DNA of 64,000 bases, from the NCBI GenBank assembly GCA_965200155.1, contig CBDATR010000024.1, positions 288,001 to 352,000 of the forward strand, in the 5' to 3' direction. Made by a program: the position numbers and the translations under genes. Each line of letters begins with the position of its first letter. Positions within the stretch are counted from its first letter, which is position 1. The notes under the pieces were generated by a model that worked only from the letters and a program-made list of their open reading frames with translations, searched no databases and was not told where the DNA came from. The DNA is from Nitrosopumilaceae archaeon (lineage in GTDB: Archaea > Thermoproteota > Nitrososphaeria > Nitrososphaerales > Nitrosopumilaceae). Positions 7,133 through 63,807 of the stretch are shown in pieces.

Positions 7133-7224
7133 GTATGAGTTCACGTCTTCCGGAATCTTGTGCACAAATCACATTAACTGTCGCGATCAGTTGTGCGTAA
7201 ATTTAGACACAGGTGAACTCATAC
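7133..7224. mobile_element. MITE1 (92 bp, TIR GTATGAGTTCAC)
   Basis: 8-bp TSD CACCAGGG; empty site present in IS copy 2. Confidence 0.97.
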
Positions 7225-7350: not shown

Positions 7351-7442
7351 GTATGAGTTCACCTGTGTCTAAATTTACGCATAACTGATCGCGACAGTTA
7401 ATGTGATTTGTGTATAAGATTCCGGAAGACGTGAACTCATAC
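7351..7442. mobile_element. MITE1
   Basis: 8-bp TSD AAACTTGA; empty site present in IS copy 2. Confidence 0.97.
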
Positions 7443-9265: not shown

Positions 9266-9357
9266 GTATGAGTTCACGTCTTCCGGAATCTTATGCACAA
9301 ATCACATTAACTGTCGCGATCAGTTATGTGTAAATTTAGACACAGGTGAACTCACAC
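9266..9357. mobile_element. MITE1 at the IS66/tnpB junction
   Basis: 92-bp consensus match; flanks do not match, so no TSD (probable deletion or recombination junction). Confidence 0.93.
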
Positions 9358-9901
9358 CGACAGAAAGCGAATAATATCGCGAACGACTCCATGAATAGAG
9401 TAGTCCACGCGATCACCAAAGGTGTGGACAAGGTAGTCCTAGAGGATTTATCACCGAAAGCAATGACCAGTCATGGCGGGAACCGGAAAAGAACAATGGA
9501 CCGTTCCATGCGCGAGAACCGGGTAGGCGAGTTCCGCCGGAAAGTAGTACAAAAGTGCGAGGCACTGGGGATTGAATTGGCAGCAGTGCCAGCGAGATAC
9601 ACAAGGGGGCGGTTTACCCGCCCAACGAGCCAGACCTGCCACGTGTGTGGACACGTTGACGACAAATCACGATCAACTAGGGACACTTTCAATATGTAAC
9701 CAGGAATTTCACGCCGATATCAACGCGGCGTTTAGTAACCGGTTTCCCTGTATGGGGCGGCAGAGCGTGTCGTCCGGGGTGGGAACCGTTCCCCGCCCAA
9801 CCGGAGGCGTCAGGGCGGGAATAATGGTGACAATCCAAAGCCATGTACTGTCTAGGAACGAGGTTCCATGAAAATCATAGTCAAAGACTTATGGTGACTG
9901 C
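9358..9901 (+). pseudogene. tnpB: TnpB (IS200/IS605/IS607-type) C-terminal relic plus 3' flank
   Basis: VVLEDL (RuvC-II), TSQTCHVCG and HADINAA (RuvC-III) across a frameshift; paralogous to 44175-44487. Confidence 0.85.
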
Positions 9902-14251: not shown

Positions 14252-14343
14252 GTGTGAGTTCGCTTGCGTTTACATTAATGCATAGCGGATCGTAGCAATC
14301 AGTATGGTTTTTGAGCACTGGGATTGGAGATGCGAATTCATAC
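14252..14343. mobile_element. Old, diverged MITE1 copy
   Basis: 92 bp, GTGTGAGTTCGC…GCGAATTCATAC, collinear with the MITE1 consensus. Confidence 0.7.
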
Positions 14344-14845
14344 AATCGGGATGTGTGGTTGGTGCTTAAGTGATCGTACTGCCTAAACGGTTTAACTGGT
14401 ACGTGAACTCAAGTTTGTTGTATAATCAAGTTACGTTGAAAAATTGCACTGGTGACAATAGTTTGTACATTTCCATCAGTGACAGTCATTAGATCCAAGT
14501 CAATAGTACGAAAAGTAAGTCCGCTTAGGATCCGGCGTACAGTAGTTCAGATTGCACAAGCCATATGGTAAAGAGAATAACAGAGGAATCAAGACAAAAG
14601 AGGCGTTGCCACAACCAACATAGCTCAAGACCCGAAACAAGACACGTACGAAGATTGTGAACCAGAGAACGGGAACTACTCGAGTAAAGATGGGCAGGCC
14701 CATGATACCAATCACCGCCACCCAGATACGAATGGTAACTGAATCATACAGCAAGGATCCCGCCGGAGTAGTACGTATTGCAAAGAGGCTTAGACATGAT
14801 ACATATCGCGCAGTATATCGCATAATGAAAAAGAACGGTACGGCA

Positions 14846-14955
14846 GGCTCATCACCTGCAAAGTCAGAGTGGGTACGCTATGCTGACTTGCTTGGTGCAC
14901 GATTCCATGCCGCTGCTCGGCTCATCACCTGTAAAGTCAGAGTGGGTACGCTATG
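14846..14955. repeat. 37-bp direct repeat, 36-bp unique insert, 37-bp direct repeat (CRISPR-like single-spacer unit inside an IS)
   Basis: GGCTCATCACCTG(C/T)AAAGTCAGAGTGGGTACGCTATG at 14846-14882 and 14919-14955; the paralog near 37085-37125 has a single copy and no insert. Confidence 0.95.
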
Positions 14956-15280
14956 AGCGTAAATATTCCAATGTGGCACGTAGACTGGCATGTCATGAAA
15001 GATGAGCGCTTCAAGGGACTGAATCTCATAGATGATGCATCCAGGTGTATAGTCGGAGCGGCACTATTTGAGCATGCAACCTGAGAACGCCACTCTATTA
15101 CTGAGACTGGTAATGAAACGATTCGGCGACCCTGCATCTCGGATAACGGCGCGTGTTTCGTAGGACAATAAAAGGGCAAAAAGAACTGGAAACCCACTAT
15201 TCTAGGAAGAACTGCTGGATCAAGACATCATACTAATCAATTCCAGACCATGCCACCCGCAGACAAATGGCAAACTGGAG

Positions 15281-15379
15281 GTATGAGTTCACCTGTGTCT
15301 AAATTTACGCACAACTGATCGCGACAGTTAAAGAACCGGTTCTTTTGTGCACAAGATTCCGGAAGACGTGAACTCATAC
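15281..15379. mobile_element. MITE1 variant (99 bp) inside the IS481-like relic
   Basis: TSD AACTGGAG; empty site at ~36777-36784; AGAACCGGTTCT replaces TGTGA. Confidence 0.95.
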
Positions 15380-15659
15380 AACTGGAGCGCTTCCACAGAA
15401 CGATTGAGGACGAGATATGACATCATGACAGTCTCCGGGATTATGTTGACTACTACAATGAGAGAAGATTGCACTTCTCACTGGATAGATAACGGCGAAA
15501 CACCACTCCAGGAATAAAAAGGCGACCCAGACAATTAGGGCAAATGATGCAAAATGGATGGAGCGGGATGCCAATGACTAGCGGACCGACTTTTCATACA
15601 TTACAACTCCCACATTGGGGCCAAAGTTGTTAAATGGTATTTCCGGTCTCTATATCATA

Positions 15660-16244
15660 ATGAACCGCACGTGTAGTATGAAACGCACAACCTCGGAGAC
15701 AGATGTTGGGGTATCGGTGAACCTGGATGGGCTGGGCAAGGCCGACGTTGAAACAGGCAACAAATTCATAAATCACCTGATAGCGTCCTTCTCTCACCAT
15801 TCCATGATGGATGTACATGTGCGCGCCAGCTCACTGGACGGTATACTTCACCACTTGGTGGAGGATACCGCGATTACCCTGGGAAAGGCCATCTGTGATG
15901 CCCTGGGGAGCAGGCATGGCGTGGCGCGGTTCGGGCACACATCCATACCCATGGATGAGGCCCTGGTGGAGGTATCTGTAGATTTGATAAGACGCCCATA
16001 TGGCATGGTGAATCTGTCCCTAAAGGGGGACTCCGTGGAGAATGTGCCCCATGAGGATATAACCCACTTCTTTGCCTCACTAATACAGAATATGGAGGCA
16101 TGCGTGCATGTGCGTGTCATATACGGCGATAACGATCACCACAAATCCGAGGCGGCAATAAAGGCACTGGCAGTATCGATGCGGCAGGCAATATCCCCTG
16201 ACAGTAAGTATTCGGGAGCTCCCAGTACCAAGGGGACCATGTAA
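15660..16244 (+). CDS. hisB: Imidazoleglycerol-phosphate dehydratase
   Basis: RTTSETD, HHLVED, PMDEAL, NDHHKSEA, PSTKG. Confidence 0.96.
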   Translation: MNRTCSMKRTTSETDVGVSVNLDGLGKADVETGNKFINHLIASFSHHSMMDVHVRASSLDGILHHLVEDTAITLGKAICDALGSRHGVARFGHTSIPMDEALVEVSVDLIRRPYGMVNLSLKGDSVENVPHEDITHFFASLIQNMEACVHVRVIYGDNDHHKSEAAIKALAVSMRQAISPDSKYSGAPSTKGTM

Positions 16245-16840
16245 TGGTCCGTCTGGCGCTGTATGATTATGGTGCGGGAAACATATTCAGCCTAAAAAAC
16301 TCTTTTGAGAGACTGGGAGCCCAGGTGGATGTAATTGCCGACTTTGGCAAAACAGGATACTCCGGGTTACTGCTTCCTGGTGTGGGCAGCTTTGATGCAG
16401 CCATGCTGGATATGCCGAATCCGGGCATCCATGAATTTGCCGGTGACACATTACCGGTTTTGGGCATATGTCTGGGCATGGAGATGTTTCTGGATTCCAG
16501 TGACGAGGGGAGCGAGGCCGGTCTTGGTGTCATACCGGGCAGGGTGGAATCGTTACCCCCCACCCTGAAGGTACCACATATGGGGTGGAACAGTTTGGTT
16601 ATACACAGGCAGGGAATACTGCTGAATGGTGTTGATAACAGTTCATGGGTATACTATGTACACTCATACATGACTCATCCTGATGATGATGCAGTCATAA
16701 CCGCGGTATCAGACTACGGCATGAATATACCGGCCGTACTTGAGAGGGGTAATTATTTCGGTACACAGTTTCATCCGGAAAAGTCCGGACCCACGGGCCA
16801 GCTTATACTGGAGAATTTTCTGCGTGAATGTAAAAAATGA
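16244..16840 (+). CDS. hisH: IGP synthase glutamine amidotransferase subunit
   Basis: LPGVGSF, GICLG, PHMGWN, QFHPEKS. Confidence 0.97.
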   Translation: MVRLALYDYGAGNIFSLKNSFERLGAQVDVIADFGKTGYSGLLLPGVGSFDAAMLDMPNPGIHEFAGDTLPVLGICLGMEMFLDSSDEGSEAGLGVIPGRVESLPPTLKVPHMGWNSLVIHRQGILLNGVDNSSWVYYVHSYMTHPDDDAVITAVSDYGMNIPAVLERGNYFGTQFHPEKSGPTGQLILENFLRECKK

Positions 16841-27482: not shown

Positions 27483-27574
27483 GTATGAGTTCACCTGTGT
27501 CTAAATTTACGCATAACTGATCGCGACAGTTAATGTGATTTGTGCATAAGATTCCGGAAGACGTGAACTCATAC
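27483..27574. mobile_element. MITE1 inside IS copy 2
   Basis: TSD CACAATCA; empty site in copy 1 at ~8635-8642. Confidence 0.97.
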
Positions 27575-29005: not shown

Positions 29006-29157
29006 CTTGGTTTAGACGTGCAGGGTGGGAGAAGTGATTCTGCGCATACGGTCTACTGTCGCGATCAGTTGTGCGTAAATTTAGACACAGGTGAACTCAT
29101 ACACGTACAGTGCCATGCAGTGCTGTTGACAATTTTTGTGATGTATGAGTGGCGTAT

Positions 29158-36303: not shown

Positions 36304-36395
36304 GTATGAGTTCACCTATGTCTAAATTTACACATAACTGATCGCGACAGTTAATGTGATTTGTGCATAAGATTCCGGAAGACGTGAACTCATAC
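36304..36395. mobile_element. MITE1 upstream of amoA
   Basis: 92 bp; TSD AGTGAGAC/AGTGATAC with one mismatch. Confidence 0.95.
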
Positions 36396-38589: not shown

Positions 38590-38688
38590 GCAGGGATATC
38601 GAAGCTCGGTCAACCGAGAAGGACTCAAGATCAATCATAAGAGATCCTTTCCCTCAGGGGTTCGTGGGTTCGAATCCCACTCCCTGCA
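38590..38688 (+). tRNA. tRNA-Leu(CAA) with a short canonical intron
   Basis: GCAGGGA/TCCCTGC stem; aagga-ctCAAg, ~14-nt insert, atcctt; GGTTCGAATCC. Confidence 0.92.
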
Positions 38689-44174: not shown

Positions 44175-44487
44175 GCTGTCACCATAAGTCTTTTACTATG
44201 ATTTTCGTGGCACCTCGTTCCTGGGCACCACATGGCTTTGGCTTGTCACCATTATTACCGCCCCGGACGACACGCTCTGCCACCCCATACAGGGAAACCG
44301 GTTACTAAACGTCGCGTTGATATCGGCGTGAAACTCCTGGTTACATATTGAATGTGTCCCTAGTTGATCGTAATTTGTTGTCAACGTGTCCACACACGTG
44401 ATAGGTCTAGCTCGTTGGGCGGGTAAACCGCCCCTCGTGTATTTCGCTGGCACAGTCACCAATTCAATCCCTAGTGCCTCGCACTTT
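44175..44487 (-). pseudogene. tnpB: TnpB C-terminal relic copy 2
   Basis: Reverse-complement paralog of ~9552-9901; HADINA motif. Confidence 0.8.
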
Positions 44488-45036: not shown

Positions 45037-45128
45037 GTATGAGTTCACCTGTGTCTAAATTTACGCATAACTGATCGCGGCAGTTAATGTGATTTGTGCA
45101 TAAGATTCCGGAAGACGTGAACTCATAC
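45037..45128. mobile_element. MITE1
   Basis: 92-bp consensus match; no clear TSD. Confidence 0.93.
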
Positions 45129-54523: not shown

Positions 54524-54823
54524 GTAATCGTTTAGGTCACCTAAGTGTTTTTCCTAATATGCAACCAAGGCAGGGACTAAATCCTGTTATCTCACTGCGC
54601 TACATTTGCGAACACAACATACGTTAGGGCTGGCGGTGTCTATCACCCACCGCTTCGGGCTTGTGGTTACCGGATTTTGTGTCATGAAAGCAATTCGGGT
54701 ATGAGTTCACCTATGTCTAAATTTACGCATAACTGATAGAACCGGTTACCAGTTAATGTGATTTGTGCATAAGATTCCGGAAGACGTGAACTCATACCAA
54801 TTCGGAGTGACCTAAACGGTTAC
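54524..54823. mobile_element. MITE family 2 carrying a MITE1
   Basis: GTAATCGTTTAGGTCAC … GTGACCTAAACGGTTAC. Confidence 0.8.
54699..54797. mobile_element. MITE1 variant (99 bp)
   Basis: TSD CAATTCGG; AGAACCGGTTAC replaces CGCGA. Confidence 0.95.
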
Positions 54824-61492: not shown

Positions 61493-61593
61493 TGGCGCCG
61501 GGAGGGAGATTTGAACTCCCGTTCCCTTGCGAGAACGCGCTTTATGGTCCTTGATTTCCAGGCGCGCGCCCTACCAGGCTAGGCGACCCCGGC
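61493..61593 (-). tRNA. tRNA-Ser(GGA) with a short intron
   Basis: GCCGGGG stem; cgcgc-ctGGAa plus insert; long variable arm; GTTCAAATC; encoded CCA. Confidence 0.92.
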
Positions 61594-61827
61594 ACACTGT
61601 TGAATATCAGTGCTGACTAATTAACTGATTCGCTAGATTTTTGGGAATTATATATGAGTTACATTATTCATGGGAACCGGTTACTGGAATGAGGTGCATA
61701 GAATCATCACTCCCAATAATGACACTGATATACAACAAGTTTGGTGTGCAGACTTGTGTGTTCTTTAGCCGTTCTCACACACAAAGTGATTCTGTGCATA
61801 AGATCTAATATACTGCCCAAGAATATT

Positions 61828-63567: not shown

Positions 63568-63590
63568 AGACCTTATGCGCATGATTGACA
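63568..63590. mobile_element. Solo IS5-like terminal fragment abutting a MITE2-like end
   Basis: AGACCTTATGCGCATGATTGACA is identical to 27409-27431 and preceded by ACT. Confidence 0.8.
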
Positions 63591-63731: not shown

Positions 63732-63807
63732 TGCTCCCGCCGGGATTTGAACCCGGGATCACTGCCTTGAGAGGGCAGTATGCTTAACCGGACTACACCA
63801 CAGGAGC
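63732..63807 (-). tRNA. tRNA-Glu(CTC)
   Basis: ctgcc-ctCTCaa-ggcag anticodon arm; GGTTCAAATCC. Confidence 0.95.

Follow-up and report, generated by a model that had tools for sequence, protein, structure and literature searches.

The DNA analyzed here is a window of 64,000 nucleotides (G000:C24:288001-352000) from a 2.38-Mb archaeal assembly, G000, which consists of 51 contigs and is 87.6% complete. Positions 15332-15343 of this window are occupied by a perfect 12-bp palindrome, AGAACCGGTTCT, which lies within a copy of a short mobile element, MITE1, and this copy is itself located in a degenerate insertion sequence (IS). The features of the locus and the related copies elsewhere in the window are as follows:

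14500..15605, plus strand: degenerate rve-type (integrase-core) IS with in-frame stops, host of the focal MITE1 copy
15273..15280, no strand: left 8-bp target-site duplication AACTGGAG of the focal MITE1 copy, perfect
15281..15379, plus strand: focal MITE1 copy, subfamily B1, 99 nt, terminal inverted repeats GTATGAGTTCAC / GTGAACTCATAC
15332..15343, no strand: perfect 12-bp palindrome AGAACCGGTTCT, block B1, in place of TGTGA of the MITE1 consensus
15380..15387, no strand: right 8-bp target-site duplication AACTGGAG of the focal MITE1 copy, perfect
27483..27574, plus strand: MITE1 copy with the consensus states TGTGA and CGCGA, given as an example
7133-7224 (minus strand), 7351-7442, 9266-9357 (minus strand), 36304-36395 and 45037-45128: other consensus MITE1 copies
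54699..54797, plus strand: MITE1 copy, subfamily A1, with AGAACCGGTTAC (54738-54749) for CGCGA and the duplication CAATTCGG; about 21 copies genome-wide
9735..9746, plus strand: GTAACCGGTTTC inside the 3' end of a TnpB-type element, part of the 15-nt block TTAGTAACCGGTTTC; one ancestral-like copy has GGAACAT
44294-44305: inverted second copy of the TnpB-type GTAACCGGTTTC site

MITE1 is a 92-bp non-coding element whose terminal inverted repeat and 8-bp target duplication are also those of an IS of the IS66 family. In the autonomous partner the same first 12-13 bases are followed by an open reading frame of 527 amino acids that matches PF03050 (DDE_Tnp_IS66, E 2.6e-39). The genome contains 566 full copies of this short, non-coding element (68-254 nt), and 327 of them are flanked by a perfect 8-bp duplication, the commonest being AAACGGTT (three times), AAATGGTT and AACCATTT (twice each). 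The 99-nt element at 15281-15379 shows all four properties of a MITE of an IS66-family element: terminal inverted repeats, a duplication of fixed length, the ends of an autonomous transposase element, and high copy number combined with a short, non-coding sequence. Measured from TATGAG to CTCATA, the core is 90 nt long in 402 copies (the consensus form), 97 nt in 58 copies of two kinds and 99 nt in 69 copies, and a few copies are longer. Several palindromes are already present in the consensus, namely TAAATTTA, TCGCGA, T(T)GTGCAC(A)A and TTCCGGAA. In the 90-nt core two positions (31 and 64), which are 33 nt apart and each lie inside a direct repeat GCAYAA, are dimorphic for C and T. A distant relative of 92 nt with similar ends and an unrelated interior is found at 14252-14343, a short distance upstream of the host IS.

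Repeats are abundant in this genome, with about 32% of the 2.38-Mb assembly present in more than one copy. Another frequent element, with the termini AGACCGTATGCGCA / AGACCTTATGCGCA (102 termini, flanks ending in A-N-T), has inserted repeatedly into MITE1 directly behind CAGT and TTAAT, and examples in the window are located at 29050-29102, in a truncated MITE1, and at 63568-63590. The terminal repeat GTAACCGTTTAGGTC occurs on many elements with different interiors, for example at G000:C24:255646-255787, and MITE1 has inserted several times into this repeat with the duplication AAACGGTT.

The exchange at the focal site can be defined precisely by comparison with the other full copies in the window. 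Six of the eight have the consensus sequence at both variable sites (CAGTTAA-TGTGA-TTTGTGC), the focal copy reads CAGTTAA-AGAACCGGTTCT-TTTGTGC, and the remaining variant copy (54699-54797) is consensus at the TGTGA site and carries AGAACCGGTTAC for CGCGA. The window sequence was read directly at 15332-15343, and the alignment leaves no freedom at either boundary: five bases are missing and 12 are present instead, a net gain of 7 without duplication. Alignment to the six consensus copies thereby confirmed the replacement of 5 bp by a 12-bp palindrome that a model had proposed from the letters of this stretch (the sequence-only reading). If the flanks are counted, the palindrome extends to 16 bp, AAAGAACCGGTTCTTT, at 15330-15345. 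With at most one mismatch the 12-mer occurs twice in the window, as compared to 0.08 expected occurrences.

Contrary to the sequence-only reading, which described an insertion at this locus, block B1 did not originate here. The same block with the same flanks is found at 40-45 places in the genome, depending on the flank anchors used, and in 42 of the 566 full copies, and the focal copy is bordered by a perfect duplication of its own. Furthermore, at the corresponding position of a second copy of the host IS (C24:509630) there is a consensus MITE1 bordered on either side by AACTGAAG, as opposed to AACTGGAG on both sides of the focal copy. Two MITE1 variants were therefore inserted independently into the same hot spot. 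Copies of the host IS without any MITE also exist, since the empty-site joint 15272->15380 was found in contigs of two sequencing runs (X3 and X8), and an intact relative of this IS at C24:93022-93855 matches the Pfam family rve (E 4.4e-12). The block shared by about 40-45 copies, the perfect duplication around the focal copy and the different duplication at the paralogous site together identify the palindrome as a subfamily marker and not as a local event. We therefore conclude with high confidence that the focal palindrome is an inherited marker of one subfamily of an IS66-type MITE. The focal copy transposed to its present site already equipped with the block, and the MITE has remained unchanged since landing. 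The focal locus itself is thus ordinary, a MITE copy of a particular subfamily.

MITE1 copies that share their flanks form 25 groups, and in 5 of these the members differ in their block state; the focal pair represents two separate insertions, and the others are located in IS copies that are about 96% alike. Conversion in situ, for which such pairs were considered, is weakened as an explanation, because the focal pair has different duplications and repeated insertion into a hot spot is sufficient. Insertion also took place in the opposite direction: the rve-type IS has entered MITE1 many times at or beside TTCCGGAA, with at least 12 junctions in different subfamilies (e.g., G000:C43:8757, C9:187052 and C31:35752), which suggests a strong target preference of this IS for the TTCCGGAA palindrome of MITE1.

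MITE1 varies at four sites, designated A to D, in each of which a palindrome may replace a few bases, and the direction of these changes can be deduced from older copies. Diverged relatives of MITE1 show consensus-like sequence at all four sites, and the palindromes are therefore derived. The divergence from the respective own consensus amounts to 0.41% in A1, 0.48% in B1 and 0.71% in A2, compared to 1.37% in the 90-nt class, and these lower values indicate that the block-bearing subfamilies are younger bursts. Both lines of evidence back the assumption of the sequence-only reading that the other MITE1 copies represent the ancestral state. One MITE1 lineage can be followed stepwise from B1 to C1 together with B1, then to the addition of D1 and finally to B2, B3 and D2, point substitutions being almost absent. 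Among the carriers of each block all four haplotypes of the two linked C/T positions (r2 0.40) are represented, in about the proportions of the parental consensus class. This spread requires either repeated recombination between copies or repeated creation of the same block, and the latter would favor a deterministic mechanism over occasional repair accidents.

Two further arrangements of the block were observed outside regular copies. At G000:C5:89740-89880 a partial MITE1 breaks off precisely at the border of its AGAACCGGTTCT block, and a full copy from the same subfamily comes directly after it; as a single duplication, GAGAACCA, surrounds the pair, a rearrangement breakpoint at the palindrome is indicated. 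At G000:C24:482690-482960 a diverged MITE1-like remnant, non-repeated by self-BLAST, contains GTAACCGGTTAT and AGAACCGGTTCT 22 nt apart.

The center of the palindrome, the 8-mer AACCGGTT, is found eight times in the window in comparison to 0.68 expected occurrences, a number that was reached in none of 100 shuffles. Half of these sites are in repeats (two MITE1 copies and two TnpB elements) and half are single-copy. Genome-wide we counted 233 sites, 202 of them in repeats. After masking every stretch with a second copy, which removed 32% of the genome, 31 sites were left in 1.61 Mb of non-repeated DNA versus 17-30 expected from Markov models of orders 0-6, and BLAST searches with the sequence context assigned 29 sites to single-copy contexts. 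The enrichment of the 8-mer expected by the sequence-only reading does not extend to DNA outside the repeats, and the genome-wide excess has resulted from the amplification of repeats. In this genome the extended palindrome RGAACCGGTTCY is present at 110 sites versus 0-2 sites in each of 30 relatives. A spread of the 12-mer beyond chance over unrelated sites, including unique DNA, as would be typical for an independent mobile unit, was not observed. We found no sign that the 12-mer moves freely, and the proposal of an ultra-minimal mobile unit is thus not supported. Thirteen of the 233 sites belong to a tandem repeat of about 13 units of 39 bp at G000:C10:386960-387470, each of which contains AGAACCGGTTGT. 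Two sites, at 61675 and 63545 of the window, are close to tRNA genes (61496-61593 and 63732-63807). Two tRNA matches in the window, 38590-38688 and 61496-61593, are 98-99 nt long, which is above the usual length and suggests introns.

Comparison of repeat copies with and without the AACCGGTT 8-mer revealed that the exchange in subfamily B1 is one of at least seven primary replacements, with two secondary ones in addition. Each of them installed a AACCGGTT-centered palindrome or a closely related 15-16-mer, and all are located in mobile elements. The primary events are:

MITE1 site B: TGTGA replaced by AGAACCGGTTCT, about 40-45 copies
MITE1 site A, first form: CGCGA replaced by AGAACCGGTTAC, about 21 copies
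MITE1 site A, second form: CGCGAC(A) replaced by GGAACAGGTTGTTCT(A), about 60-65 copies
MITE1 site C: TTACGC(A) replaced by GGAACGGGTCATTCT(A), 15 copies
MITE1 site D: CCGG replaced by GGAACCGGTTCC, 8 copies
IS66-family transposase gene: GCAAAGC replaced by AGAACCGGTTCCA, 38 copies with the block and 30 without
TnpB gene, 3' end: GGAACAT replaced by TTAGTAACCGGTTTC, at least 15 copies with the block and 1 without

The later changes took place within earlier blocks, at site B first to AGAGTAACCGGTTCT and then to AGAGTAACCGGTTACTAT, and at site D to GGAGTAACCGGTTACGTTCC; these secondary events strike the centers of the earlier AACCGGTT blocks. In the primary events 4, 5, 5, 6-7, 6-7, 7 and 7 bases were removed and 12, 12, 12, 15-16, 15-16, 13 and 15 inserted, and the net gain in length of every event is between +6 and +9. 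The loss of exactly 5 bp that the sequence-only reading took as characteristic is thus not a general property, as the comparison of multicopy repeats yields no 5-bp mode. Three outcomes had been named there as speaking against its proposal, namely variable deletion lengths without a 5-bp mode, absence of 8-mer enrichment, and an adapter or assembly artefact, and the first two are what we found. Its idea of a stereotyped scar survives in part: replacements with the same core recur at several independent sites, while no such event happened at the focal locus.

The arms of the palindromes are AGAACC, GGAACC, GTAACC or GAAACC, and the related 15-16-mers have the form GGAAC-N-GGT-NNN-TCT. Some blocks have hybrid arms (AGAACC with GGTTAC, or AGAGTAACC with GGTTCT), and such hybrids around a constant core are expected from exchange within a self-complementary core. 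None of the blocks has direct repeats at its borders; target bases are missing instead. Several blocks occupy the center of an older short palindrome, either TCGCGA, TTCCGGAA or an earlier AACCGGTT block. MITE1 sites A and D are the centers of two consensus palindromes, and site A is in addition the loop of a predicted 5-bp hairpin. Other kinds of block replacement were not seen among the 566 MITE1 copies, which otherwise differ only by point changes and a few small indels.

Two of the replacements affect protein-coding genes of mobile elements. In the IS66-family transposase gene 38 of 68 copies carry AGAACCGGTTCC(A) or a TTAC variant and 30 carry GCAAAGC or GCAGAGC/T. On the coding strand the block converts ...NNPAEQALRY... 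into ...NNPAEQWNRF followed by a stop, so that the gene is truncated in these 38 copies. The protein of the TnpB-type element matches OrfB_IS605 and a Cas12f1-like TNB domain; here the block shifts the frame directly after the ...INAA motif in at least 15 copies, and the one ancestral-like copy reads NAAWNIL.

Taken together, the best explanation, which we regard as probably correct though by no means firmly so, combines an inherited subfamily marker with the series of events described above, in which templated patches would have been installed and then amplified by transposition. The 5-for-12 replacement would have taken place once, at an earlier time, in a MITE1 master copy, and another AACCGGTT site might have served as the template of the patches when breaks were repaired or DNA was replicated. 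The self-complementary core could allow the nascent strand to switch strands or loci; copying of one arm would then result in a perfect palindrome and copying of two different arms in a hybrid, and transposition would multiply those master copies that carry blocks. Our confidence is low in one component, namely the origin of the blocks by short templated deletion-insertions with one AACCGGTT-type site as the template for another. Core and arms recur at other loci of the genome, and the identity ends before the flanks: for no block did we find a donor with extended flanking identity, matches continue past the core for only 2-4 bases, and neither of the two 15-16-mers exists anywhere else in the genome. 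Microhomology at the junctions examined is limited to 0-1 base, an extent indistinguishable from chance. A first AACCGGTT site still needs an origin if patches are templated, and net gains of +6 to +9 are not predicted by a random repair process.

Such regularity could also point to an active process. It is conceivable, although we think it rather unlikely, that a dedicated sequence-specific nuclease, transposase or recombinase repeatedly removes a few bases and writes a AACCGGTT palindrome, with a preference for elements handled by the IS66-family transposase. To about the same limited degree we consider a process coupled either to the machinery of IS66-family transposition or to a defence directed at this machinery, which would cut out 4-7 bases and write the AACCGGTT-centered palindrome into the MITE, its own transposase gene and TnpB, and would hit the centers of earlier blocks again. 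This is in line with the installation of the same 8-10-base core at no fewer than seven independent sites, each time with a small loss of target, with the narrow band of net gains, with the confinement of the blocks to elements of this type, with the later events at the centers of earlier blocks and with the presence of blocks in both MITE1 and the IS66-family element that has the same ends. The occurrence of each block on all C/T haplotypes, the six block changes in one MITE1 lineage with almost no point changes and the resemblance of the MITE1 duplications AAACGGTT, AAATGGTT and AACCATTT to the core fit as well. However, the 8-mer shows no excess in non-repeated DNA; the target signature is not constant, neither in the bases removed (4 to 7) nor in those inserted (12 to 16), the flanking pairs vary (AG, GG, GT, GA), a candidate enzyme was not found, and for no locus could both states be traced to a common ancestor. 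An origin of the blocks as remnants of nested inverted-repeat elements, lost by nearly precise excision except for the outermost bases of their terminal repeats, appears improbable to us. GTAACCGGTTAC indeed consists of the first six bases of the terminal repeat GTAACCGTTTAGGTC and their reverse complement, the blocks vary in their centers (CG, AGGTT, GGGTCA) but not in their outer parts, as in joined termini, and net gains near +8 correspond to the duplication length of these families. The GTAACCGTTTAGGTC family comprises 78 termini in varied sequence surroundings, of which one pair was checked and showed an 8-bp duplication, and GTAACC is the tip of this family, but RGAACC is not the tip of any in the genome and no element with RGAACC termini was found. 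Moreover, the blocks lack any duplication and have lost target bases, tip-to-tip palindromes of other terminal-repeat families are not enriched, GTAACCGGTTAC occurs only seven times (six of them at two MITE1 sites by the cluster reading), and no MITE1 copy is interrupted at sites A-D by such an element among the matches listed.

Further candidates examined in this connection were rejected. A full-length element with RGAACC/GTAAC termini was found neither by inverted-repeat pairs nor by repeat boundaries or terminal repeats with perfect 8-bp duplications, the enriched 8-mers TGTGAACC and GGTTCACA are both internal to the rve-type IS and hence not termini, and the sequences predicted for a nested MITE1 insertion that keeps both duplications, worked out by hand, do not match the blocks. 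Selection instead of mutation bias, with the palindrome as a binding site or hairpin that aids transposition or tolerance and that arose by convergent random changes, is very unlikely: the block-bearing subfamilies are young and expanding, and the blocks are placed in parts of MITE1 with indel variation among diverged relatives, one of them in a predicted hairpin loop, but the emergence of the same 10-12-mer at least five times by random mutation is implausible and the block truncates the IS66-family transposase. An artefact of assembly, adapters or polishing is the explanation to which we assign hardly any weight. The assembly is fragmented into 51 contigs, incomplete (87.6%) and rich in repeats (32%), but the block is found inside contigs at more than 40 loci with different flanks. 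Furthermore, independent Logan contigs (contigs, not raw reads) from runs of at least two studies hold the block beside the consensus version, which likewise speaks against an artefact.

The runs that contain the window stretch come from three studies and are labeled as sponge metagenome and as two other coded organisms. A related organism is represented in run X8 (share 0.21). Logan contigs of X1, X3 and X5 cover the unique flank at 15579-16400 with 0-1 differences. Three versions of the MITE are present in these contigs, with the palindrome, with TGTGA and with AGT added behind 15333, and none of these contigs bridges the unique flank across the MITE. In 60 genomes of the family MITE1 was not found, the sole match outside G000 being one of 22 nt in G069, and a metagenome scan yielded none.

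We also searched for enzymes and published precedents. A Y1 (RAYT/TnpA) transposase (PF01797) was not found in the 87.6%-complete assembly, whereas the control search matched 6 of 14 genomes, and neither was a C5 methyltransferase (PF00145), the only methyltransferase class covered. The search for a Bse634I-type endonuclease had no match in the genome, and its control likewise matched nowhere. In the literature there was no report on AACCGGTT as a prokaryotic repeat among the matches listed, nothing that pairs nearly precise excision with palindromes was found in the open literature, and palindromic excision footprints of archaeal ISs were represented by one general review among the matches listed.

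The subfamilies described here resemble MITE subfamilies of IS66-family ISs in their shared terminal inverted repeats, the 8-bp duplication, the non-coding sequence, the hundreds of copies and the internal differences spread by transposition, but the markers of MITE1 are neither point changes nor simple indels: one palindrome was installed repeatedly. Quasi-palindrome or template-switch mutagenesis and templated break-repair insertions combine a small deletion with an insertion of 10-20 bases, and palindromes are created or perfected; in the classical template-switch cases nearby sequence is copied and each product differs. The blocks of MITE1, IS66 and TnpB likewise combine a small deletion with an insertion and the hybrids fit a switch within the core, but they share one core although their sites are unrelated, and no donor that matches the flanks was found. 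Nearly precise excision of the IS10/Tn10 type leaves a short palindrome of the outer ends of the inverted repeats, and the target duplication is kept. GTAACCGGTTAC with its match to the tips of one terminal-repeat family is reminiscent of such remnants, whereas the blocks have no duplication, have lost target bases and, in most cases (RGAACC arms), match no terminal repeat of the genome.

The highly iterated palindrome HIP1 of cyanobacteria is distributed over both genes and spacers and presumably arises by substitution. Like HIP1, AACCGGTT is an 8-bp palindrome strongly over-represented in one genome, but its excess is confined to repeats, without over-representation throughout the genome, and arises by block replacement. 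REP elements with RAYT transposases and the small palindromic mobile repeats of organelles, such as the GC clusters of yeast mitochondria, 20-50 nt long and scattered in unique DNA, are comparable as very short hairpin-forming repeats inside other sequences and sometimes inside genes. The blocks, in contrast, comprise 12-16 nt and were seen only inside transposable elements. That neither a Y1 transposase nor a C5 methyltransferase was found in the 87.6%-complete assembly makes REP/RAYT-like or HIP1-like readings less likely.

In this sponge-associated archaeal genome, one third of which consists of repeats, almost all internal differences between transposon subfamilies amount to the same short palindrome in place of a few bases, and among them is a block that introduces a stop into most copies of the IS66-family transposase gene. 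If templated repair between palindromes is the true cause, the genome would illustrate, in a clean natural case, the spread and growth of short palindromes in mobile DNA. If instead a dedicated activity is responsible, this would be a new way of modifying or disabling transposons and a new kind of small-scale DNA editing of archaeal mobile elements. Under either reading the events form a concrete and countable set that can be tested by population sequencing.
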